Source: Eremomyces bilateralis CBS 781.70
Taxonomy: Eukaryota
Strand: one strand, 5' to 3'
DNA: 20,000 bases
NCBI GenBank assembly: GCA_010015585.1
Contig: ML975152.1
Below the pieces are notes generated by a model that searched no databases, was not told the DNA's origin, and saw only the letters and a list, made by a program, of their open reading frames with translations. Position 1 is the first letter of the stretch; every line of letters begins with the position of its first letter. Shown piece by piece: positions 1 to 20,000 of this stretch. The translations under genes and the position numbers were made by a program.

Positions 1-164
1 GCGCCAGTGACCCAGTGCGGATGGACTTATGATCGGATACCTGCCGTATTGTGTGTTGAAACATTCCCACCAGCCAAGGATATACGGAAAACTTTGAAGT
101 CACTCATCTAGATTGAAATGATCGCCATCATTGAGGAATACGACTGCTAGACCAACAGGACACC

Positions 165-1897
165 ATGGGCAAAGGTATGTCGCCTTCCTAGTTCCATTGA
201 AGCTATTTTTGACAGATCTCGAAGGCACGGATAAGCTATACATCACTCACTCCGAGTGGGCGTCAGGAGATGCCTTTGGAGCGAGTGCCGGCTCAAAAGC
301 TGGCAAACAAGCGGTCGACACAACCTTCAAACGATTACCTTATAACTACTGTGCGGTGTCCTTGCAGCCGTTTAGCGATCCTGTCTGCACGGAGAACGGG
401 ACCATATTCGACCTGTCAAATATATTAGCGTGGCTTGCGAAGCATAGAACGAATCCAGTGGATGGAACACCGCTGAAGCGCGCCGACTTGATCAAGTTAA
501 ACTTCGCGAAAAACGATGACGGAGAATATGTCGACCCGGTAACGTTCAAGGTCTTCACAGACAATACCCATATCGTAGCGTTAAAGGTTTCGGGAAACGT
601 TTTTGCTTGGGATACCGTTCAGCGACTGAACATCAAAGCCAAGAATTGGAAGGATTTGGTCACCGACCAAGAGTTTACCAGGAAGGACATCATCACCTTA
701 CAGGATCCACATAACATCGAAGCAAGGAATCTCAGTTCATTTCAGTATTTGAAAGAGGGAGAAAAACCTGTAGCCGCACACCAGGATCCCGACGAAAGTA
801 ATGGAATCAACGCGTCAGCCCTGGGAAGCTCGGCGAAGATTCTCCGAGCAAAGGAGGCAGTGGCTAAAGCACGCGCTGAGCGTGCTACGGAGGGCCAGCA
901 AGCCAAAGGCCAACTATCGCGAAATGCACAGAAGGCGGCCTTGAGTGGCAGTGGTACAGTACGAAAACTTCCACCGAAGAATGCCGCCCACTACACCACC
1001 GGGCAAGCTGCTGCATCATTTACTAGCACTGGTCTTACCCCTCAAACCGACGCCAGCCTCGCAATCCTGTCCGACGAAGAGTATATGCTCAAGCCCAAAC
1101 GAGTCAAGCATAAGGGATACGCCATTCTTTCCACCAACCTTGGCGACCTGAAGGTTGAACTATACCCCGAGTGGGCCCCTCGAGCCGTGTGGAACTTCAT
1201 TCGCCTTGGCCAAAAGGGCTACTACCGAAATATCGACTTTCACCGAAATATCAGAAACTTCATGCTGCAGGGCGGCGACCCCACGGGGTCGGGACGAGGT
1301 GGCTCGTCCATATGGGGCAAGCCATTCGTGGACGAGATCGAGGGGCCTCTGGCGCATGACGGACGTGGCATGTTGAGTATGGCCAACAAAGGCAAAAACA
1401 CCAATACCTCGCAGTTCTTCATCACGTATCGAGCATGCCCGCACCTCGATCGGAAACACACCATTTTCGGCAAAGTCGTCGACAATCTCGACGTCCTGGC
1501 ACGGCTGGAGGCGGTCAAAACGGACGACAAGGACCGACCCACAGGCGGAGACGGCGGAGAAGCCATTTTGCAAGATGTCACGGTTCTCATCGATCCATTT
1601 GAGGAATTCATGAAGGAGTCGGCCGCGCAAGAGGCTGAAAAAGTGCACAAGGAAGAGGTACGGCGACAAGGAGGGACTGAGGATGATAAACTGACTTGGA
1701 CGGGGAAACGAGTCCGGGGCACAAAAGGCAATAGCGACGGCGCTTCTACCGGTGTTGGCAAGTATTTGAAAGCCGCCATGAATGATGATACCCCAACTGG
1801 GCACGACGAGATCATCGAGGAATGGGACGAGCCCGAGCAGCCGATGAAAAAGAAGGGGAAAATATCTGCTGGGTTTGGCAACTTCGATAGTTGGTAG
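165..1897 (+). CDS. cyp8: Peptidyl-prolyl cis-trans isomerase-like 2 (U-box + cyclophilin; PPIL2/Cyp60/Cyp8). Exons 165-174 and 225-1897
   Basis: ATG at 165. Removing the intron GTATGT(175)..GAAG(224) restores the N-terminus MGKGTDKLYITHSEW. U-box-like region (CAVSLQPFSDPVCT...NPVDG). Cyclophilin motifs FHRNIRNFMLQGGDPTGSGRGG, SMANKGKNTNTSQFFIT and HLDRKHTIFG. C-terminal GFGNFDSW. Confidence 0.95.
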
Positions 1898-2445
1898 CAT
1901 CAAGGTCAAGGCTAGATGAGCGAACCTCGTGGTTCGTTCAGGGCTTTCGTGACTTGTTTTGCCGGCTATTTCTCAGCCGTCCCTGCAGCAACATCCTTTT
2001 ATATTGCTGTTACTGCCATACCGCCGCATTCCTTTCCTAGGGCCGAAGTGGACAGAGTACGGCGGGTGTGCAAGCAACTAAGAAGAATGGTTGCTGAAAC
2101 GGCATCCGTCTTGTTGGGAACGGACGCGAGAATGGAAGATATGGCTGACAGGTCGCATGCCGCTGGCTCAACTCCTGTTCAAAAACCAACCGTTCGTTTC
2201 GGCCACAATTTGAAGAGATGTAAACAGCCTGTCTGGAGCCGTCAAAATATTGAAGATGTTCCCGATGACTAAGTCAAACCACTCTCCTGAACCGAACTCG
2301 GCTCCTTCTCGCCAAGGTCCTCAATCCTCACACTCATCCGCGCACTGTCTCGGACGACAGGTCCGCTCGAGTGTCACCAATGGACCTCCGGCCTCCTTAT
2401 TCGTTTAAAAAAGAGTAAAAGAGACGACGGCAAATTGACCGCCGG

Positions 2446-2674
2446 TGACACGGTCTGGATGCGCAAGGTCTGCGATTACCAAGTTCCATTAATCTAAACT
2501 GAAGAGAGAGAGAGAGAGAAGAAATCTCCCGGCACCTTTGTGCGCGAGATAGCGACTCTCCTCTCCAATGCCCTACTGCTGTGTTACCATGTTTGTTTGC
2601 TTCTCTGATATAATCCACCAGCCACGTCTTCAGCCACAACCAAGGGAACAGGCCGCAGGCCTGGGACCATAACA
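2446..2674 (-). mobile_element. Solo LTR (229 bp, family 1) with 5-bp TSD GCCGG
   Basis: TG...CA termini. GCCGG at 2441-2445 and 2675-2679. Reverse-complement copy of 5106-5334 with no mismatch seen by eye. Confidence 0.92.
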
Positions 2675-2806
2675 GCCGGTTTTGGCAGGCTTCCGTTGTT
2701 GGTATACCCGATCCCACTACTATAGCAATCGTGGCCCACTGTAACGAACGCGAAACCTACAAGATAGGGATATCAAGAAAAACGGTTTCTTTCGTCATAT
2801 CAAAGC

Positions 2807-2840
2807 TACAGAAGAAGAAGAAGAAGAAAGAAAGAGAAAG
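2807..2840. repeat. GAA/GAAA purine microsatellite
   Basis: gaagaagaagaagaagaaagaaagagaaag. Confidence 0.6.
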
Positions 2841-3318
2841 CAAACTGCAAACAGCTATTTAAAAACGACGAAAGCGGGCGTTTGCAAAGGAAACGGCGAT
2901 AAGGCCACGAGGCACCAGGGCGCCGAGGCACCAAGGCGCTGTCCACCCATCGAACCGTGACAGCCCGCAGCCCTCGATCCTCCCGGTCATTAGCTCACTC
3001 CTATCATCCGAGGTTTTTCCACCAGCACTCTTTAGAAATGTCTATTATCTCATCACATTGATCGAGACATCCTCTACCGGGAGAACATGATCAGCTCCAT
3101 CCTGTCACGCGCCAGAAGGAAAGGGCCTCCTTTGGTTCCAAGCAGGCAGCAAGGCCACTTATGGAAAGCGACGGCCCCGCCCTGACCACTTATTAGGACC
3201 GTGACTAGAGTACTCCATACCAAGGAACGTACGCCTTTTAGCTGAAATCAAGCGGCTCATCTCCAACGCAACTTCAACGAACGGAGTGCCCGCATATGAG
3301 AAGTCCCAGCTCACCATT

Positions 3319-4221
3319 ATGGCTTCTCCAACTTCACCAACTTCTCCAATCTCTCGAACTACAGAAACCCCACCGTTCGATGAAATGACTCCTAAGGTTC
3401 CACCAGCTGCAGGACTCGAACAAGCCCAAGTACTGCCATTCAGCATTGCCAATTTCAAGCGTGCTGTTGCGGATCGTCTGCGAGCTCTGGACGGCGACGG
3501 CGGAGACAATACACAGCGATGGATCGTTTTTTCGGCCTTTAACCACTCGAAGCTCACCTACATCGACCGACTCCGTTACCCAGTTCGTTTACAACTTGAT
3601 GACGATAAATTAATCGTCAGGATGGTGACCCATGTGCACGAGAACATGCACGCCAACTTGCATGCCGAAATAATCATGCAGTTGAGGCTTATGGGTCTCC
3701 AGCTTAATCTGGAGTTTACGTGTTCCGGATCAGGCCGGTGCCGCCATCGCTCAGGCAATTCATTCAAGGAGGCGGACAGCTCAATAACACCTTCTAACCC
3801 CCCTCCATGGCCCGCCTTAATCATCGAGGCCGGTTGGACAGAGTGCTTAGGGCGTCTTCATATTGATGCACAATGGTGGCTATCGGCTCAATTGCCCCCA
3901 AACAATACTCGAATGGTGGTTCTAGCTTCGTTCAACAAATCAGGGCGTACCTTCCGCCTTGAAAGGTACGAGCTCGTCACCGTTGCTGACGCTAATCGAA
4001 CGCGATCCGCGCCACTCGGAGTTCGAGATATCGCGATGTGCACGGCAGCTACGACGATTGACCTCAGATCGACACCCCCAATCATCACTGGTGCGCCATT
4101 TGTGCTGCCTTTTAAGAAGATCATGCGGCGCCCTAAAGCGGCTGCTGAGCAGGACGTCTCGTTGAGCGCGGCCAATCTCGAGGCATGGGCCATGGGTATA
4201 GCTCGTTTGTACAACGTTTGA
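3319..4221 (+). CDS. Intronless ~300-aa protein resembling the fungal PD-(D/E)xK / Uma2-like (Crinkler-REase-like) restriction-endonuclease-fold family
   Basis: Uninterrupted ORF (first ATG at 3319; the ORF track starts at GTG 3286). Motif series HE..HA, KEADSS, WPALIIEAGWTE and L..DAQWWL matches the recurrent fungal pattern KEPD...WPTLVIE.G.SES...L..DA.WW. The family call is from recalled pattern, not from a search. Confidence 0.7.
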   Translation: MASPTSPTSPISRTTETPPFDEMTPKVPPAAGLEQAQVLPFSIANFKRAVADRLRALDGDGGDNTQRWIVFSAFNHSKLTYIDRLRYPVRLQLDDDKLIVRMVTHVHENMHANLHAEIIMQLRLMGLQLNLEFTCSGSGRCRHRSGNSFKEADSSITPSNPPPWPALIIEAGWTECLGRLHIDAQWWLSAQLPPNNTRMVVLASFNKSGRTFRLERYELVTVADANRTRSAPLGVRDIAMCTAATTIDLRSTPPIITGAPFVLPFKKIMRRPKAAAEQDVSLSAANLEAWAMGIARLYNV

Positions 4222-5105
4222 GAGGGTCTAAAGCATGAGCATCTGAAGCTGGCGTCGTGTGGAGGAGTGAGCATCGATGGAGGTCGCGCCGTGTGAGTCA
4301 TACAGCCAAATAGACCCCCGAAAACGGAGGTCTTCTTGCCGTCTGGTTGTTTGAGTAATAGATGTCTGATAGACGAAGATATTAATTCACAACTAGAGCT
4401 GTAATCCACCAGCGACCTAGCCACACCACCGAGTTAGTCACTTCAGCTCAATAACGACGATCGGTACCGTTTTTTCGAGATGCCTCGACAACAACAGCCT
4501 CAATTGTCCTCAAACGAGGCTAATATAAATTTAGCTAAAATGGCTATTGATTAAGGCCAAATTCGATCGAAGGATTTTATCTCTCTCTTTTGTTGCTTCT
4601 AAGTTAGATGTGCTGCCAGATCCAAAAATGACATCATCGAGAACCGTTGGGGATCTCGCTGTGGCTGTGTGTAGGATCCCCGGAGCTTGGCGTGGTCGAT
4701 CATACCAAGCTCCGGGGCGGCCTGGCACGACATCCTTCGCACGCTCTCCTGGTTCCGATTCTGGTCCCACAAACAGTATTCTACCACGGAACCATCCGCA
4801 CGCTCCGTAGATTGCACGCTGGCTCTTAAAAGTGCGCTCTTTTGGAGTACACGCTCCCTTCCGTGTAGCCCTCCTCCCACGGCTACTCTCGTAAGATCTC
4901 GCTCCCACGACCACTCGCCCACGAACACATTAATACGAACACTTCCCACAACCATTCTCTCTCACGGTCGCCGCTCCACGGACATCCTCTCACAATTGCC
5001 ACTCTCCCACGACCACTCTTCCACAATCCCCACAACCGCACGGTCGTTGTCACATGATCAGAGATATCTCTCCTCCACCACAGAGATGTCGTGTAACGCA
5101 TTTCT

Positions 5106-5334
5106 TGTTATGGTCCCAGGCCTGCGGCCTGTTCCCTTGGTTGTGGCTGAAGACGTGGCTGGTGGATTATATCAGAGAAGCAAACAAACATGGTAACACA
5201 GCAGTAGGGCATTGGAGAGGAGAGTCGCTATCTCGCGCACAAAGGTGCCGGGAGATTTCTTCTCTCTCTCTCTCTCTTCAGTTTAGATTAATGGAACTTG
5301 GTAATCGCAGACCTTGCGCATCCAGACCGTGTCA
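5106..5334 (+). mobile_element. LTR (229 bp, family 1); probable 5' LTR of a truncated Ty3/gypsy element
   Basis: TGTTA...TGTCA termini. Inverted copy of 2446-2674. Flanks TTTCT/ACAAC are not a TSD. Followed 12 bp later by a gag-like frame. Confidence 0.88.
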
Positions 5335-5346
5335 ACAACGAGCATT

Positions 5347-5898
5347 ATAGAGAAAGCCAACGTATTAGAAGAAATAAAGAAGGTCGCCGGAGAAGTAAGG
5401 AGGCGATACCCAGGCGAGAAAACGATAGATGAATATATCGCTGCCCTTCTAAAGGATATTAAGGAACGAGAAGGACCCGCCGCTGCGTAAGCGAAGGACT
5501 AGGTATTATTAGGACTAAGCCGTAGTATCCTTCCGAAGCTAGTAACCTTCGACGGTATTAAACGATCTAAATACCCGACTTTTAAAGATTAGGTAAAGAA
5601 TAAGCTCGCGGTTAACCTGGCTAGAAATAACGAAAGCATACGAGTAGCCTATATATAAGCTTTCCTCGTGGGTCAAGCAGTAAAATACGTATAATACTTC
5701 ATCTCGTCGGGACGAACTCTTAATATACTAACGACCGTTAGCGGCCTGTTTAAGTACCTTAACCGACGCTATATAGATCCCTATAAAGCGACTCGAGCGA
5801 TAGATACCTACGGACAATTTAAGCAGGGTAATATAGACTTTATCGAGTTCGTATCGGAACTCGACCGTCTTTAAATAGAGGTAAGAATTAATAAGTAA
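5347..5898 (+). pseudogene. RIP-mutated Ty3/gypsy gag remnant
   Basis: One reading frame translates ...LPKLVTFDGIKRSKYPTFKD*VKNKLAVN...RVAYI*AFLVGQAVKYV*...LFKYLNRRYIDPYKATRAIDTYGQFKQGNIDFIEFVSELDRL*, a Retrotrans_gag-like pattern. Stops are TAA/TAG at plausible CAA/CAG positions, and the segment is TpA-rich and CpA-poor. Confidence 0.8.
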
Positions 5899-6003
5899 AA
5901 GAGACGACGGCATGTCGACCGCCAGAATGGCTGACTTGCCCCACTGTGCACGCTTATATTAACTTAACGAACCTGACCCTATCAAAATCGCCCACTACTT
6001 TAA

Positions 6004-6235
6004 TAGGCCTCGGATGGGTGCGGTTCGAACCGCAGGGTTTGGGTTTGGGTTTGCGTAGAATGAAGAAACCCACCCCTCGCGGTTGGGGTCCGAAATCCGG
6101 CGGTTGCGGTTGGGGTTGGGGGGGTCTGTCTGTAAAACCCAACCGCAACCGCTGCCAAAAACCGCGGGGGACCCGCGGGTTTGGTTTTTCGGCGGGTGCA
6201 GCCAACCCCAACCGCCAGATGGGTTTGGTTTCTTG
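6004..6235. repeat. GC-rich array of AACCGC/AACCC/GGGTTT motifs in both orientations; possible DNA-transposon (hAT-like) terminus
   Basis: Begins TAGGCCTCGGATGGGTGCGG. Many GCGGTT/AACCGC and GGGTTT/AAACCC units. No matching opposite end found in the window. Confidence 0.4.
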
Positions 6236-6300
6236 GCATATATCGGGGTACGATTAGGTTAATTGGCGCACATTTCCAGCATAATAGGCTACTATATATA

Positions 6301-8089
6301 ATAATAAGAATCAATTTAACGTACTATCTGGATCCCTTTCGGGTCTATGAGCACGGCATTCTATCTGGTCTATCGCGGGCAAAAGTTTCCCCGTAGCCAT
6401 GAGGCTGCGGGTACATAAAATCCCACCTTCTCCCCTTGGTAGAGTATCTCAATCATTTTTATCATTCCGCACGAGTCGGTGTTTCCGCCTACGCGGAGAG
6501 CTTATTCTGGCACGTCGTGGAGGACCTGGAACGGTTTCCAGTCCTCTATTACCTCCTTCTCAACTTCCTTGGCTACCCGGTATTGCTCTAGGCCTCCCGC
6601 ATCGATCAGCCACCTTGCTGCGTGGCGCACCTTGTCCCTGTCATGCAAAATCCTCTTAAAGTCCGTTGTTCCAGCTCGTTGGAGGAGCGCAATCCTCTGG
6701 TCGGTCCGCTGCGGGCAAAACGCAAGGAGATGGTAGAGAGACTGTCGGGGGGCACCACACTCACACGCTGGGTGGATTCCAGGGACACCAATTTTCGCGA
6801 GCCATCCCTTAACTCCAACTACCTCAGTCCGAAGTGCCATAAGCGCCGAGGCCTCGTGTTTCTGAGGGCCATCGTACCGGTTAAGGCACTGAGTTTCCCA
6901 CGGGTCCTTCTATGTCCTTGCTCTCCTTCCTGGTCTGGCCGCTTCGGCTTGCCATCTTTCCCTCCATTTCGCCCGATACTCGTCCTGGATCATCCGGTGC
7001 GGGCCTTTTCGCTGTTGTGTTCGATATCCCCTAGCTGGTTCGGGCCGGGGGAACAGGAGTCTATCATACTGGGTCCGGAGCGTACACATTGCGGGTTCAG
7101 GTTTAGACTGTTCGTCTCGGGGGAGCAGACGCAGCATCCCAGACTTGCGTCAGGGCTCCTTCAATCTGGGTAGTGACCTTATGGGAGTTCGCCGATGCTG
7201 CTCTTTGAGCGGCCCGTTCTTGGACGTAGAGCTCGATTGGGGGAACGTCCACCTCTTTCTCAAGCGCGGCGATTGGTGTCCGTTTGTACGCCCCTAGAAT
7301 CTTTCGAAGGCACTTGTTCTGAACCTTGGCCAGGTCCTTCATTTTGCCTTCAGAGATTGGCTCACCCTGCTGATCGACTCCCCAGATTGGGGCGCCGTAT
7401 GTCATAATGGGCCGTGCAACTGCTGTATAAAGTAGCCTCGATTTCCGGACAGATGGTCCCCATACCGACGAGGTTACCCTCGCTAGGGAGTCAAAGGCCC
7501 TAAGTCCCCTCTGTGTTGCCCGGAGGATATGGTCCTTCCATGAGAGAGACGGGTCGAGCCAGACCCCTAGCACCCGGAGGGATGTAACCAGTTCAGCTTG
7601 GTGTCCCTGTATCTGGATCGTAGACCGGAGATCAGCGGAAGAATTACGTTTCTTGGTGAAGTGGATAATCTGGTACTTAGCCGTGTCTCCCCAGGTAATA
7701 AGTGTAGTATCATCAACGAATCCGAACCCAAGCACGTTACCCTGAACCTCTTTGAACTGTTTTAATAGGTCAGATATAAATAGGATAAACAGCGCGGGTG
7801 ATAGGGTAGATCCTTGCGGGATCCCAGTCTCCGTGTCGAACCAGCGGCTCTTAAAGTCCGAGAAGAGGATCCTTGTTCGCCGTCCGGTTAAGAACAATGC
7901 GATCATCTGGACAATCCATTCGGGGTATCCCATCCGACGGAGGACCCAGAGCAGCCGGGGGTAAGAGACGTTATCAAAAGCTCCGGCAAGGTCAAGCCCA
8001 AGTACGGATACTACTGACTTCTTTGAGTGCCACGCCGTCTGTACAGTCCCGGTAAGGAGTTCTAGGGCGGAGAGAGTAGATCTCTCCTT
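6301..8089 (-). mobile_element. 5'-truncated, degenerate Tad1-clade LINE (RT + C-terminal CCHC, no RNase H seen)
   Basis: Minus strand translates KERSTLSALELL...LGLDLAGAFDNV...TGIPQGSTLSP...GFVDD...LRVLGVWLD...CLRKILGAYKRTPIAALE, then CECGAPRQSLYHLLAFC. Premature stops and a frameshift. AT-rich 3' tail near 6290-6320. Confidence 0.9.
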
Positions 8090-8260
8090 TATAGAAATAT
8101 ATATAGTAGCTGTTCTATTTGTGTAACTCTAGGGCAATATGTTGATCAAATGGATTGTTTGTGGTGGCCGGAAACTGGGTGCTTTGACTCCTGTCCCTCC
8201 GCTAGATGTTAAATATCTCCCGAAAGGCCTCGGAGCAGCGTCTTCTATTCTACGTGGGTA

Positions 8261-9784
8261 TTAATGCCAACTATCAATGGTCTCCTCCTCAAACACCAAG
8301 GTAAAATCCAATCGCTTGGCCGCTTCGAACAGAGGATTCATAACATTCTCTGGGAAATTGCAACCACCTACACAGCCTTCGCGGCGGCCGTCGTACACGA
8401 TCCGGATCCGTTGCAACGGCGAGTGCCGCTGCCTCGCGATCTCCATAAATTGCCCCAGCCATTGGTCCAATTCCGTCCCATGCGTGCCCCGGGGACAGGC
8501 CGAGAACCGGTCGGAGAACCGGTTGAACGTCTCCATAACCAGCGTGAGGTTCCGTAGTTTCGGTGCGAGCAGCGCGTTCGCGGCGTCGGTGGCATCGAGA
8601 TCGTCGATCCGGCAATGGGGATTGGCGGTGAAGGTCGTCCAGAGGATTGTGAGGGTTTCTAGCGCGGGCAGGCCAGTGACGTCGAGGGGACGACCGGGCA
8701 TCCGATGGAAATATCCAATGGCGAGGGAACGCACGGTCGAACGGTGGCGCGCGAGAAGCCAGTGGAAGAAAGTCTGGTCGTCGTCCGGTGGGGAAGGGAC
8801 GTAACAGTCCTTAAAGTAATCCATATAGGCGAAGTGCTCGATGGTCTTGCACCAGTTAACAATCGTCGGGAGGACCAGCTCGTCATTGTTAAAATCGCCG
8901 ATGTCTACCGTAGTAAACGGCGCGGTGCCCTCCTAATAAGCGGAGTTGTTAGCAAGGGAGCATTACATTAACAGCGGAGGGTTTAATGGGAGGTTGAACG
9001 GGGAAGAAGGGGGGAGTAAAGATCGATCTTAACTAACTTTAAGAAAAGCGACGTCGGATCTCGACAGTGATACGAAGCCGTAGATCTGGAGCGCTCGGTT
9101 ACAGCGGTTCGATCTAGAGCGCATCATGTTACGGCCAAGGCCGTATCCCTCCTCTTCATGCAGGACATCAATCAGCATGACATGATTGATGGACGTAAGC
9201 CGCTCCCAAACACAGGCGAATGGGCCAGCACCGTCCGTATCGCTCTCTGATAGGACGTCGATAGGAAAGCTTACGAGCTTAAGACATCGGAGGTTCGTTG
9301 TCAACGACAAAATTTCATGGAAGACTTTGATATATTGTTCGGCAGTCAATGACTCCAGGGAGTACTGTTCAATCATTAAGGTGTGGCAGCGTCGAGCAAG
9401 CGCTGGGTTACCTCGGAGCGTGGCATGTAAACTGGGGAGCCGATTCCGGTATCGACAGCATGGGGGGCCTATCCAGAGCTCGAGGTGACGGTAAAACAGA
9501 GGTTGAAAGATCGAACGAAAGTGACGGCAAACCAAGGGCATCCAGGAGGCTTCATGGGACGCCCGAACGTTCGGGTGCGGGCATCTTCGTAGACCATCGT
9601 CACTCTTCTGCTTTATTTCCTCGCCCGTGATGGAATGGATCACCTTAGCATCTGGTACAGTGAATGTCGACGCGCCATATCCAATAGAAGCGTACTTGAG
9701 GATTAACTCGAGGAGCTCGTCCGACAGACGTAAGATGGGGGGCTGCTCGTTCAGCTCTCTGTCACCGGTGGGCGCTGTCGACAT
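8261..9784 (-). CDS. F-box domain protein with LRR-like C-terminus (~472 aa). Exons 9784-9038 and 8932-8261
   Basis: N-terminal ILRLSDELLELILKY and LVCRHFRSIFQPLFYRHLEL (fungal F-box signature). Phase-0 intron 9037-8933 (GTTAGT...GCTAAC...TAG) joins the two ORFs in frame. LRR-like units (LRCLKL, VRSLAI, LPALETLTI, PKLRNLTL). Confidence 0.8.
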
Positions 9785-10069
9785 GCTAGAGCTGACTGGA
9801 AGGCGGAAGATATCGTCTTGCTAGAGTATCAGTTAATAGACAGTGAAACTGCGTCCAGTACGTGTTTTCTACTATTTCCTAACAAATACGAATGGGGATG
9901 AATTAGATGACAGTTAAGACCTTAACAGCAGCCCCATAAAGACGTGAGGATTGATATGGTGGCGCTATTAAACTATAAATAGAGCTACTGACTTGGCAAA
10001 GATGATTGCGTACATGGGCTAGCTTAAATTACATCTCAGTTGGTATACGTAGTAGTTATGGATAACGTA

Positions 10070-10257
10070 TGTGACAGTCTTGGGCTTCGCCCAGTCTGTG
10101 TGTTGTGGCCTTGCGGCCTAAGGCAGAAGGGATGGGTAGACCGTTTGCCCACAGATGTAAATAGCAGATCGCAGCGAGAGAGATCTTCTCCTTCTCTCTT
10201 TAGCAATTCATCAGCGTTACCAGCTTACCAAATCCTTCGTGGTTTGGGCCCATGACA
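10070..10257 (+). mobile_element. LTR (188 bp, family 2)
   Basis: TGTGACA...TGACA termini. Inverted copy of 19724-19911 with 4 mismatches counted by eye. No TSD (ACGTA/CCTGG). Confidence 0.85.
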
Positions 10258-12526
10258 CCTGGCTCGCTTCGGTTTAGCGCCTCTACTTCGGGTTTGGCGG
10301 TGTCTTCTTCTAGTTTGGCGTGCTCGGTTTAGGCATTACTGCCTGCCGATCTATCAGTGAGATCCATGTCGGAGAGTAAGGGGAGTTCTCATTGGCGCTG
10401 GAGCATGGCAGATTTACCTGCGAAAACGGCGTCACAAACCTCCAAAAACGGAGGTCAATCTGCCGTCTTTTTGTTTAAAAGAGTAATTTGGCTCAAGATA
10501 GTCGAATAAGTGTTAGTCTGAATACCTTATGTATGCGTATCTGATCACGAAATCTGTCCACTGTGAAGGGCCACTGATATGAGGACGCCCGAGGAGAAAG
10601 TTCCGAGATGACGAACCCCAATTGCAATCTTGTAGCGGATTTTGGGGACGCAAGTTCACTGCATTACGAAAGACACTGTCCGAAGGCCCACATCCTGGTG
10701 AGTATATTCTATAGTGGCGTGCGGTTCAGGTTCTCATCCCTCCCTTTGGAGGCATCGAGTGAACTAATCCTCTACAGTCATTTGTGCTTTTTGCTGGTGA
10801 GGATTCGAGGCAAGATGTATCTAGACTTGTCGTTCAAGCATTCATTCACATCACCAAATATCGCAAATATGAGCGAATGGTTGTGGAGATGAGCTCAGTC
10901 AACTATAAGACGGATGCCCCTCGAGGCTTTTAAGTCGATTACCCCTGCAAAGGACTTCGCACTGATCATTATCAACTGCAAAGAACTAAGAACCTCAGCC
11001 CTGCTCTAGCACATGCCTCTTGAAGCACGCAAATGAGTAGTAGGTGCCGGCTGTGTACTCTTCCTGATACCGAGCTTATTAGCGATGTTCCTCCTGACTG
11101 GAGGCCAAACAGTTGGATTTTTGCCGAGTGTGTTCATAGCAAAGGTATGTCCCCACCCACACGGTCGAGCGGCCTGGTACTCTACTGATTATATCGTTAG
11201 AACACACAATCAGGGGATTAATATGGTCAGGATCAATACGGGGGAGATTATGATGGCTGACAAGGATTTCCCGGCCGAAAGAACTACTGGACTTGAAGGG
11301 GCGAGAACGTTAGCGTAAATTTAATCACGTCCAGCTCCGTTTCAAGGCTTATATCTCCTTCATTTATGTCTCCTAAAGGAGAAACCATACCCCCGTCGGG
11401 GGGCTGGGGCCATGATATACTATTAGTATAACATAGTATTGGGATTTGGAATGTATTTATTGCAGTATAATCATATATCAGAAATAGGAGTCCATCAGTC
11501 TGAGTGGCAATTGAAATGTTTCAAACATACCGGCCGTCAGTCACACTCAGTGCGAGAGATGTAGTAGTCTTCAATGGTTCAGCTTATAGCTACTTTAGCT
11601 ATGTCGGAGCACTTTTGAGGATGAACTCGTTGAGACTTGAATATGTAAGCTGTCCACTGACGCATTGCTTTAGCTCCATAATAGTGTCACCCGGCGTCCC
11701 AACCCATCTCCGTGGCTGACGCTATCGCGGTGGTTGAAGGCAAGGGCGGGGAGATCTCGACCGCGCTTAAGTCATCGGAGACGACAGTGTATAGGACAAA
11801 TATAATGTGTCAACTTTTGAGATGCCTAAGAAAACAAAATGTTGGCCGTCAAAGGGTGGCATTGTTCGCAGATTTTTCAACGCTTACGCCGTTATTGACT
11901 GGCATATTTGGTTGGGAAATGAATAATCAGAGGATTGGTCATGCTTGTGGCGGTATTGTATTCAAGATTGCTACCATAGTAAGGCCGAGCGCTCCAATGG
12001 TATGTCCACTGATCAGGGCTGACTTCAAAGGTTCAAGTCCGTTGCGTTATTAACGTTCGCAAACTCTATCATCATATCGAAAGTATCCAGCGGCTCATCC
12101 TCTGTATCCTCCCTGGGAGATCTGCCAGATGGATACAATCACAGTGGCTCCGGCACCACCGTGCTCCTCGCATTCTGCTCGTTCGCAACTGCGGCGGCTG
12201 TCACAGTATGCATATGGTCGTACTCAGCAGCACTAGCTGACGAAGAGTGCGACGCGAGTGGGGACCAATTTCCATTGGAATGGCTGCAGTATGATAATGA
12301 CGCAAGGCTTCAGGAAGAAGCTTATGCTCAAGAGGACGAGTAGGCACACGGGGCATATGACGATGGTCATAAACAGACGTGCTATCGGGAATGAGCCTCA
12401 GGAATAGTTATCACCAGACGTACTTCGCAATGTGATCAGTGGCAATCACCCGAGGTGGAGAGATGGGAGGTCTTACTGTAGGCGCAGAGATAGATCACTC
12501 CAAAGGTAATTTTGGGGACCGAGTGC

Positions 12527-13319
12527 TCAATGAATTTCTTCTTGAAATTCCTCTTGAATTAAAGCAGGAGCTAATCCATTTTCGACGCGACCGATTCTTG
12601 TAAACGGCCAGAGTGTAGCATTGACTTTCCCTTGAATTAGTGCTAGAGGGATCGGACCGAGCATGCGCGAATCCCTTGACCACGGTAGGTTGTCCCCGAC
12701 AACGTAACAATGGCCACGAGGCACCTTGAAAATGAGTGAGCGGAGGAGACTTCCGAGTTGTAGCTTTGGATATGGACTCTCGATATACCTGAATCATCAT
12801 ACCCTCTCCTTCCCCAGGCGTATCTCGCAGAACGAAATCGCCAGGCATCCCGACAACACGTTTAATCGCATTGTAGTCGCCTATCGGGTGGGCGAAGCTG
12901 ATAACATCGCCAACTTGAATGCCTCTCCCCCTTCGATATTTCCTCGAGATCCAAACCGCACTGTCCGACACCGGGAGAAGGGGGAGCATCGATGGGCCAC
13001 CCGTGTCCTTTATGGTTCCAACCAGGTATATGCCGAAATGGAGCCATATGAACAGTTGAGGAGCCCAGAATGCCAGGCGCCAGGCTTGTGGGCCATGGTC
13101 GCGAAATCTTTGCGGAATTTCGCGTAGAGATGGGAAGAATCGCCGGCTCCGTGGAACCGGTTCTGGTGTATCCGTCTGCTTCGGGACCGGTGGAGGTTCG
13201 GGTTCGGCTGGGGCGGGCTTCTTAGGAGCGGGTGGCGCCTTGTAAGGTGCTGGTCTTTTTTTTGACTGACTGGCGTCCTTGATGTGGCGTACAGCGAGAC
13301 GACGCCATGACGGGTTCAT
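12527..13319 (-). CDS. IMP1: Mitochondrial inner membrane peptidase subunit 1 (S26). Exons 13319-12789 and 12724-12527
   Basis: Catalytic motifs GPSMLP and IKRVVGMPGD. Intron 12788-12725 (GTATAT...AAG) joins MMIQ to VPRGHCYVVGDNLPWSRDSRMLGPIPLALI. Confidence 0.9.
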
Positions 13320-19723: not shown

Positions 19724-19911
19724 TGTCAAGGGCCCAAACCACGAAGGATTTGGTAAGCTGGTAACGCTGTTGAATTGCTAAAGAGAGAAGGAGAAGATCT
19801 CTCTCACTGCGATCTGCTATTTACATCTGTGGGCAAACGGTCTACCCATCCCTTCTGCCTTAGGCCGCAAGGCCACAACACACAGACTGGGCAAAGCCCA
19901 AGACTGTCACA
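19724..19911 (-). mobile_element. LTR (188 bp, family 2); probable 3' LTR of an element extending beyond the right edge of the window
   Basis: Inverted ~98% copy of 10070-10257. On the minus strand it is preceded by the purine run AAAAGGGAGGAGAG (~19918-19931, PPT-like). No TSD. Confidence 0.85.
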
Positions 19912-20000
19912 AAAGGTCTCTCCTCCCTTTTAAGGAGGCCGTCTATCTCCTGCCCTTAACGCTTCGGAAGCAATGTTTCGGCCCGTCTGAGCTTCGTAGT

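Follow-up and report, generated by a model that had tools for sequence, protein, structure and literature searches.

Two single-gene cassettes with Starship-type ends in Eremomyces bilateralis as probable captain-less miniatures

Starships, as far as the parts of the published accounts used here go, are known only as giants of 15-700 kb (a second published range is 16-403 kb) that carry their own recombinase, the captain. A 20,000-nt stretch of the Eremomyces bilateralis CBS 781.70 genome (assembly GCA_010015585.1, contig ML975152.1), which we refer to as the window, raises the question of whether much smaller units with the same ends and no captain occur in nature. The window contains two cassettes, each with one gene between a pair of conserved ends, and a sequence-only reading made without database searches had taken them for small captain-less units of the Starship type. 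We consider it rather probable that they are natural, non-autonomous, captain-less miniature derivatives of Starships. The cassettes, their motif copies and their four ends are as follows (positions are those of the window):

2413..4358, minus strand: cassette 1, core to core, 1946 bp, with GAGTAA at 2413-2418 and 4353-4358 and inward-facing motifs
5893..10486, minus strand: cassette 2, core to core, 4594 bp, with AAGTAA at 5893-5898, GAGTAA at 10481-10486 and inward-facing motifs
2426-2444 (+), 4325-4343 (-), 5906-5924 (+) and 10449-10467 (-): the four motif copies, from a pattern search of the window
2413..2445, minus strand: L1, 3'-type end; the minus strand reads GGCGGTC-N4-TGCCGTC-GTCTCTT-TTAC-TC
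4312..4358, minus strand: R1, 5'-type end; the minus strand reads TTAC-TCAAACAACCA-GACGGCA-AGAA-GACCTCC, followed by a small hairpin
5893..5931, minus strand: L2, 3'-type end; shares 19 identical nt with L1 and has a small hairpin, GCCA/TGGC
10438..10486, minus strand: R2, 5'-type end; the minus strand reads TTAC-TCTTTTAAACAAAAA-GACGGCA-GATT-GACCTCC, with the hairpin ACCTCC/GGAGGT

The pattern GACGGCA-N4-GACCKCCR matches the window four times, forming two inward-facing pairs, while none of 200 dinucleotide-preserving shuffles gave any match. Each pair is bounded by (G/A)AGTAA, namely GAGTAA on both sides of cassette 1 and AAGTAA plus GAGTAA around cassette 2. The 19-mer AGTAAAAGAGACGACGGCA occurs exactly twice in the window, at 2414 and 5894, even with three mismatches allowed, and at least two matches to it were found in 0/200 shuffles. 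The distance between motif and GTAA is 7 nt at L1 and L2, 11 nt at R1 and 15 nt at R2, and both right ends follow the order motif-N3-TTGTTT-(AAAA)-GAGTAA. The positions and strands of the four motif copies, the identical 19-mer of the left ends with its 7-nt spacing and the layout of the right ends had all been described in the sequence-only reading and hold throughout. The same is true of its statement that the interiors share no further homology, since a repeat search of the window found no repeat common to both cassettes outside the ends. The hexamer GAGTAA by itself is not enriched (6 observed vs 7.85 expected in the window), and the signal therefore lies in the composite pattern.

Read on the minus strand, the ends follow two plans. 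The 5' end consists of the core TTACT, an A-rich spacer of 11-15 nt and GACGGCA-N4-GACCTCC, with the inner half of the motif forming one arm of a small hairpin. The 3' end consists of the inverted motif GGCGGTC-N4-TGCCGTC, a 7-nt spacer and the same core; on this strand, L2 reads GGCGGTC-N4-TGCCGTC-GTCTCTT-TTAC, as L1 does. L1 is continued past a nested repeat by the contiguous stretch 2675-2689 (GCCGGTTTTGGCAGG), which gives it the appearance of the right ends, where the motif leads into a small hairpin. Every border carries a direct repeat, which is TTACTC for cassette 1 and TTACT for cassette 2. The outermost 7-15 nt of the ends are not inverted copies of each other, and what the borders share is sequence in direct orientation; the cassettes lack the inverted repeats at the very termini and the target site duplication of fixed length that mark terminal inverted repeat (TIR) transposons of the DDE type and miniature inverted-repeat transposable elements.

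It could be argued that such a pattern arose by chance or represents a shared regulatory or binding motif that has nothing to do with mobility, given that each motif is short and that a relaxed half-site scan of the window was not significant (9 matches vs 4.9 expected; 20 of 300 random sequences gave at least 9). However, the exact composite patterns never arise in shuffles, the pairs face inward at a fixed spacing to a shared core, and the same ends adjoin homologous genes in another fungus, as described below. We find this explanation barely credible.

Two further sites of weaker quality lie between the cassettes:

5843..5884, minus strand: Rx, a decayed third 5'-type end with the hairpin TCGAGTTC / GAACTCGA, CCGTC, an 11-nt spacer and GTAA at 5881-5884
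5542..5561, minus strand: a low-confidence candidate for a decayed 3'-type end, with GTAA, 5 nt and GACGGTA; the relaxed scan matched it at 5542-5555

The Rx hairpin comprises 8 bp, and this end, which is absent from the sequence-only reading, stops 10 nt short of the L2 core, on its left. A decayed end in this position beside the cassettes suggests a third element of the same kind. The site at 5542-5561 is a possible decayed left-hand-type partner of Rx, to which we attach low confidence; the chance of a match of this type in the 1.5-kb spacer is ~0.01 by a rough hand estimate.

The TIRs of known elements were taken from supplementary Table S7 of PMC11162782, in which Starship ends were predicted around captain genes with starfish. 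Among the rows listed, at least seven contain gacggc; three of these are of the type seen in the window, and all three come with captains of fam05, which is the Prometheus family. In the listed part of this source, aspfum15_s01319 from Aspergillus fumigatus is a 49-kb element with a DUF3435 captain in fam05, the 3' TIR ggcggcccgcttgccgtcttgtagtttacta and the 5' TIR tataacctagaagacggcaaatgtgctgcc (PMC11162782). The layout of its 3' TIR as listed, GGCGG-N6-TGCCGTC-N7-TTAC, is that of L1 and L2 on the minus strand. For colfru1_s04050 and colfru7_s04082 from Colletotrichum fructicola, likewise with fam05 captains, the listed rows give the 5' direct repeat actattt followed by the TIR ttaaactaagagacggctg (PMC11162782). 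This 19-nt 5' TIR matches R2 at 16/19 positions, and 0/200 shuffles gave any match; direct repeat and TIR together read AC, 15 nt, GACGGC, which is the spacing of R2, and 11/15 spacer positions are identical by eye. TGCCGTC-N7-TTAC matches only L1 and L2 in the window (0/200 shuffles gave two or more matches), and either half-site pattern has 0 matches in 137.6 kb of other fungal DNA. The TIR type gaagacggcaaacg / cgcttgccgtccgtc is present in 127 rows of Table S4 of PMC12153272; among the rows listed (30/127), all are navis19-var05 elements of 39-41 kb, each with an empty site in another strain. The strings of the inner motif half and of the spacers have 0 occurrences among the starfish supplement rows listed.

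The insertion context points in the same direction. TACTTATTA, present in the outer flank of L2, is the core of the target predicted for Logos h1, a Prometheus-family element; of the Logos h1 target consensus, the 9-mer alone fits, at one of two sites. Among the 500-nt bins of the window, the one with this flank ranks second in AT content (GC 0.416), and the block from L1 to R2 is repeat-rich, which is in line with reports that Prometheus-family insertions are located mostly in AT-rich or transposable element (TE) sequence.

Both cassettes show the border direct repeats of Starships, which reflect the target core, and the nearby TIRs that many, but not all, Starships have. With Prometheus they share the end sequences, namely TGCCGTC-7 nt-TTAC at the 3' end, core-15 nt-GACGGCA at the 5' end and a GGCGG-type inner motif half, as well as a TTACT-like direct repeat and the AT- and TE-rich setting. 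They differ from Prometheus elements, which measure tens of kb and carry a captain (49 kb for aspfum15_s01319), in having 1.7 and 2.6 kb net and no captain; furthermore, the Prometheus matches come from Aspergillus and Colletotrichum, whereas the host of the cassettes is a Dothideomycete. Judged by sequence likeness, we assign the ends to the Prometheus type, which would orient both cassettes on the minus strand. The guess of Starship-type ends in the sequence-only reading is hence supported by the published ends of captain-bearing fam05 elements. That reading had also named membership of the motif in a known TE as a ground for its own refutation; the motif does belong to one, and this confirms the reading instead, because the known TE is a Starship.

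Parts of the same design are found in two further Starship types. Tardis (fam03, e.g. aspmel1_s01827) has a direct repeat that contains GAGTA(A), and its ends GAGTAA-8 nt-GACGGCG and CGCCGTC-13 nt-GAGTA follow the same plan at nearly the same spacing as the cassettes, with the captain on the short-spacer side, opposite to Prometheus-type elements. Four fam03 captain genes are listed for E. bilateralis. The Tardis TIR core GGTGACGGCGG, however, matches none of the four ends at up to two mismatches, its core pattern has 7 matches in the window, at chance level and none at the ends, and the conserved TACG of the 9-11-bp Tardis repeat is absent from the cassettes. Hephaestus resembles the cassettes in its TTAC core and its short inverted repeats at unequal distances, and its circle junction follows the same plan, with GGTCCC 4 nt before TTAC and GGGACC 12 nt after it; its own 5' end has TTAC(N7)A, and its TIR sequence (GGTCCC/GGGACC) differs from that of the cassettes. 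Hephaestus leaves no footprint on movement, derives its repeats from homology between element and target and has a circular intermediate (PMC10104507; bioRxiv 10.64898/2026.09.21.753150; bioRxiv 10.1101/2025.02.28.640899). The laboratory constructs mini-Hephaestus and mini-Pegasus, which show that Starships can still move when shortened, retain the captain together with 1.9-4.8 kb of either flank (same three papers). Compared to these constructs, the cassettes are natural, have no captain and share only ~45-50 bp per end.

Non-autonomous Helitron2-type rolling-circle elements would be another source of such ends. Fungal Helitron2 elements of the FoHeli type, according to the sections of PMC5148889 used here, have asymmetric TIRs, end hairpins, joined-end forms and captured genes; in the cassettes, the motif stands a short way inside both ends, where it overlaps small hairpins, and a tail-to-head junction exists (see below). 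The cassette ends nevertheless match the TIRs of DUF3435-captain elements with the same spacing to the TTAC core, and direct repeats of 5-6 nt stand at both borders of both cassettes, whereas Helitrons make none and Helitron2 elements insert between T and T or after TTTT. Moreover, the inverted motif is 7 and 11-15 nt away from the core rather than at the very 5' terminus, the published terminal signatures TC...CTRR or TCAG...ATTTT are absent, and no Rep or helicase frame, and thus no RepHel gene as in FoHeli, was found in the window. Helitron2 elements also repeat their 5' terminal sequence in inverted form 20-40 nt ahead of the 3' terminus; the cassettes have an inverted motif and small hairpins, with the motif subterminal at both ends. 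A Helitron2 origin is, in our view, very improbable.

Between the ends, the captain, which in Starships is the first gene at the 5' end, is missing. Scanning 70 window frames (out of 96 frames of at least 75 aa) revealed no DUF3435, integrase or transposase domain and no captain fragment or other usual Starship gene, so that the claim of captain-less units stands for the 20-kb window. In the starfish tables, E. bilateralis (erebil1) is represented by 15 captain-type genes (3 fam05, 4 fam03, 2 fam02, 3 fam09, 1 fam01 and 2 unassigned) and 0 delimited elements. The cassettes also lie well outside the Starship size range: without its nested long terminal repeat (LTR)-like insertion and one duplication copy, cassette 1 comprises ~1712 bp (~1.7 kb), and cassette 2 comprises ~2.6 kb without its nested LTR-like repeat and its nested repeat resembling a long interspersed nuclear element (LINE), in agreement with the net sizes given in the sequence-only reading. 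Where Starships have many cargo genes, each cassette has one:

3319..4221, plus strand: gene 1, encoding a 300-aa protein with a putative DUF820/Uma2-like (restriction-endonuclease-like) fold; member of a multi-copy family
8261..9784, minus strand: gene 2, encoding an F-box-type protein; two exons with an intron of ~100 nt

The two genes face opposite ways. Reading inward from the R2 motif, the ATG of gene 2 is reached after ~665 nt, of which ~470 nt remain once the nested repeat is subtracted, and the captains of the matching published elements are located 415-443 nt inside the TIR, as calculated from published coordinates; the F-box gene occupies the position where the captain normally sits. 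Protein P0048 of E. bilateralis CBS 781.70 is the annotated product of the 3' part of gene 2 (letters matched by eye against both exon frames), and P0046 of the same strain is a gene 2 paralogue, 73-82% identical at the protein level.

A window without a captain would also be expected if the cassettes were the wrecks of two large Starships that lost the captain and nearly all cargo by internal deletion in situ and never moved as miniatures. The block forms an island rich in TEs, in which LTR-like and LINE-like repeats are nested and one stretch is AT-rich, and captain-less 'derelict' Starship regions have been described in the publications as far as used here. However, neither cassette has lost an end, L1 and L2 have a stretch of 19 nt without a single difference, and the 70 frames contain no remaining piece of a captain or other usual Starship gene. 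In addition, the junctions of gene 1 and gene 2 with 5'-type ends recur on contigs of a related fungus whose syntenic interval is too short for the block. We regard such a history as unlikely.

These contigs belong to one of three sets compared with the window, of which X1 and X2 represent the window's own genome and X3 the related fungus. Of the X3 contigs compared, 30/37 are under 95% alike, and X3 bins without cover (10673-12673 and others) were not used as evidence. Two of the X3 contigs pass from homology with gene 1 into an R-type end, one at 4344 and the other at 4352. The contig leaving at 4352 continues with AAGG-GAGTAA and then an unlike flank, which amounts to a 15-nt spacer as in R2; the 11-nt spacer of R1 is 4 nt shorter than in R2 and in the related fungus, and R1 therefore lost 4 nt. 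Another X3 contig, homologous to 10387-10438, runs on into ACCGCC-CAAAAC-GGCGGT-CAATC-TGCTGTC, which is the R2 hairpin with both stem arms changed in step and the pairing kept. All gene-plus-end units of X3 are found on contigs other than record 17, with gene 1-type and gene 2-type units separate (records 18-21), and in record 17 the cyclophilin and bystin genes, which flank the locus in the window, are 2,130 nt apart, compared to 12,652 nt in the window. Since the junctions of gene and end recur in a related fungus and its syntenic interval is too short for the block, the small gene-plus-end unit is old and has been copied.

The ends could be real Starship ends and the copied unit could still be the whole 8-kb L1-R2 block or something larger, i.e. 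a composite or a segmental duplication in which the inner ends are passengers. X1 and X2 each include a contig in which an R-type end is followed by 35 other letters and then by an L2-type end (joint 10466 to 5893), an arrangement that by eye resembles 5843-5898. A diverged gene 2 paralogue also exists elsewhere: 8909-9390 has a second version in X1 and X2, set apart by 64 differences and 7 gaps (records 5, 15), in agreement with P0046. Against a whole-block unit, gene 1-type and gene 2-type units of X3 are on different contigs, and on the two X3 contigs the homology with the gene 1 unit ends directly behind the R-type end and unlike sequence follows, as would be seen with single units. We rate this alternative as quite unlikely. 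Judged by eye, the contig joining R-type and L2-type ends is the intact counterpart of the decayed junction 5843-5898, and it may be a paralogue rather than an independent event.

For the cassettes as miniature Starships, we infer excision, a circular intermediate, mobilisation in trans, the acting captain family and the single cassette as the moving unit. A DUF3435 tyrosine recombinase encoded elsewhere in the genome would bind both motifs and join the two TTACT cores, releasing a circle with the junction 3' end-core-5' end. This circle would then integrate at AT-rich, TTACT-containing sites that weakly resemble the junction, and the product would show a direct repeat of 5-6 nt without a true duplication. 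If circles integrate into junction-like sites, partner-like flanks are to be expected. By eye, a faint likeness to the absent partner end can be seen in the flank outside each strong end. Left of L1, the flank has TTACTCTTTT..AAAC in common with the 5' ends, and TTCGNCTATC is shared, at similar offsets, by the flanks to the right of R1 and R2.

Several points weigh against the interpretation of the cassettes as mobile miniatures. The gain in hairpin energy over shuffled sequences is weak at the ends (z -1.05 to -2.08), and there is none in the stretch left of L1 (z 0.07). The TIRs of aspfum15, colfru1, colfru7 and navis19 are automated starfish predictions. As the Tardis ends share the plan and have the captain on the other side, the opposite orientation and action by a fam03 enzyme are also conceivable. 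The interval in X3 record 17 is much shorter, but no base-exact empty site was seen in it. Because the X1/X2 junction contig resembles 5843-5898, one or more duplications may have extended beyond a single cassette, and this contig argues against cassette 2 alone as the moving unit. Summed contig depth is not copy number, and a second gene 1 copy is not established by it. Finally, TTAC(N7)A is present on 0/2 target-derived flanks and on 2/2 5' ends, although the rule is one of Hephaestus and not of Prometheus.

In bacteria, cis-mobilisable elements (CIMEs) and integron cassettes are small units with recombination sites and without a recombinase of their own, can be moved by a tyrosine recombinase encoded elsewhere and can pile up side by side at each other's sites. 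It is conceivable, though we would not count on it, that the cassettes stand for a natural class of satellites, each built from a recognition sequence of ~45-50 bp per end and a single gene. Captains of the Prometheus or Tardis type would move such satellites in trans, insertion at each other's TTACT cores would build head-to-tail arrays, and the F-box gene would take both the captain slot and a promoter that depends on the junction. If this is true, they would be a eukaryotic counterpart of bacterial cis-mobilisable elements and of integron-like accretion. The likeness has its bounds, as the cassettes are eukaryotic, have neither an attI nor a Pc platform and have two different ends per unit rather than one attC; the window lacks an integrase, and the genes face both ways.

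A literature search for natural small, captain-less or non-autonomous Starships found none described. The term 'non-autonomous' denotes a Tc1/mariner-like element in PMC12506042 and a Helitron-like element in bioRxiv 10.1101/2025.11.13.688278, and the captain-less 'derelict' Starship regions are, in the passages used here, described as large islands only. A natural non-autonomous miniature Starship thus looks like a form not found described. Tools for finding Starships start from the captain, and small captain-less relatives would therefore go unnoticed. If the cassettes are mobile, Starship recombinases act in trans on natural substrates, and the requirements in cis shrink to a few dozen bp per end, compared to kilobases in the laboratory minis. 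Mobile cassettes would also offer a copying route for single genes within fungal genomes and possibly between them, and tools for recombinase-based insertion in fungi could take their ends as a compact natural template. The ends are the first end sequences of any Starship-type element in a species with 15 surveyed captain genes and no delimited element.

Regarding the cargo of cassette 1, the product of gene 1 has no Pfam match and 45 homologues, mostly 54-66% identical, several of them in Cenococcum geophilum and many on metagenome contigs. A structure model built from 24 sequences reached a mean pLDDT (predicted local distance difference test score) of 78.5, and the best solved look-alikes in Foldseek were 3ot2, 1wdj, 9y1l and 6okh, all DUF820/Uma2 putative nucleases (probability 0.97-1.0; target-normalised template modelling score 0.45-0.60). 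Of the 30 Atlas clusters nearest to gene 1, 2 carry Uma2. Based on this model, gene 1 encodes a putative nuclease of the DUF820/Uma2-like type.

Comparing 25 metagenome loci around gene 1 relatives (L001-L025) with the window, we found that the similarity is limited to 3340-4269 and that the common unit is no more than the intron-less gene with ~60 nt before it and 35-110 nt after it; the flanks beyond are unrelated. GACGGCA-N4-GACC or either half-site pattern was found in 0/25 loci, and no poly-A tract was present in the 3' flanks printed. The gene 1 family is multi-copy in Cenococcum-like fungi, and its copies are compact. The string GCCGTCT, considered as common to the 3' boundary of the gene 1 unit, was dropped, as it is there in one of the 25 loci only (L016). 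At L016:6945-6975, this boundary is a perfect 8-bp inverted repeat, AGCCGTCT-AGGC-AGACGGCT, which has the GCCGTC/GACGGC core of the window's ends without the TTAC core, again in 1/25 loci.

The cassettes are interrupted by three nested repeats:

2446..2674, no strand assigned: solo-LTR-like repeat of 229 nt, starting with TG and ending with CA, directly after the L1 motif
~6295..8130, minus strand: high-copy LINE-like repeat with a truncated reverse-transcriptase frame; boundaries approximate
10071..10257, no strand assigned: LTR-like repeat of a second family; contig loose ends at 10070 and 19911

The first of these, a repeat absent from the sequence-only reading, is flanked by the 5-bp duplication GCCGG at 2441-2445 and 2675-2679, and we take it for a solo LTR that inserted into cassette 1 immediately behind the motif. 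It has an inverted copy of 100% identity at 5106-5334, and many X1 and X2 contigs end or diverge at 2445 and 5334, the edges of the 229-nt repeat. Both copies have a very high contig depth; the left copy has the clean GCCGG duplication and the right copy does not, and the right copy may therefore belong to a truncated element.

In the LINE-like repeat, the frame at 7106-8128 (-) contains RVT_1 with an E value of 7.9e-17 in the Pfam scan, and the repeat has a very high summed depth with many variant contigs. At 8033-8055 (-) inside it, TTAC, 12 nt and GACGGCG fit the 5'-end pattern, probably by chance; if this pattern is present in all LINE-like copies, pseudo-sites for a Starship recombinase would be scattered genome-wide. 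The second LTR-like family measures ~187-197 nt, has a 96% identical inverted copy at 19724-19920 and a high contig depth, and its start TGTGACAGTCT resembles that of the first family, TGACACGGTCT. At 5990-6230, within cassette 2, there is a GC-rich stretch of short repeats (GGTTGCGGTTGGGG / CCCAACCGCAACC) with an 18-nt near-perfect palindrome (6100-6117 vs 6135-6152), and one contig joins both strands there.

The spacer at 4359-5893 gave no Pfam match in 6 overlapping frames of at least 75 aa. By eye, 4480-5105 had looked like the beginning of a pogo-like transposase and 5335-5890 like a gag gene mutated by repeat-induced point mutation; both assignments were dropped, as there was no Pfam match in the spacer frames. 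Rfam and tRNA scans of the window found nothing. Right of cassette 2, ~2 kb (10487-12490) have no Pfam match in any frame and no X3 cover, and the insertion-rich island may therefore reach ~12.4 kb. On the left, the list of open reading frames with an ATG start includes only the last 270 codons (1085-1897) of the flanking gene; the gene itself, at 122-1894 (+), encodes a fusion of a U-box/Rtf2-like domain and a cyclophilin in a single open frame of 591 codons.

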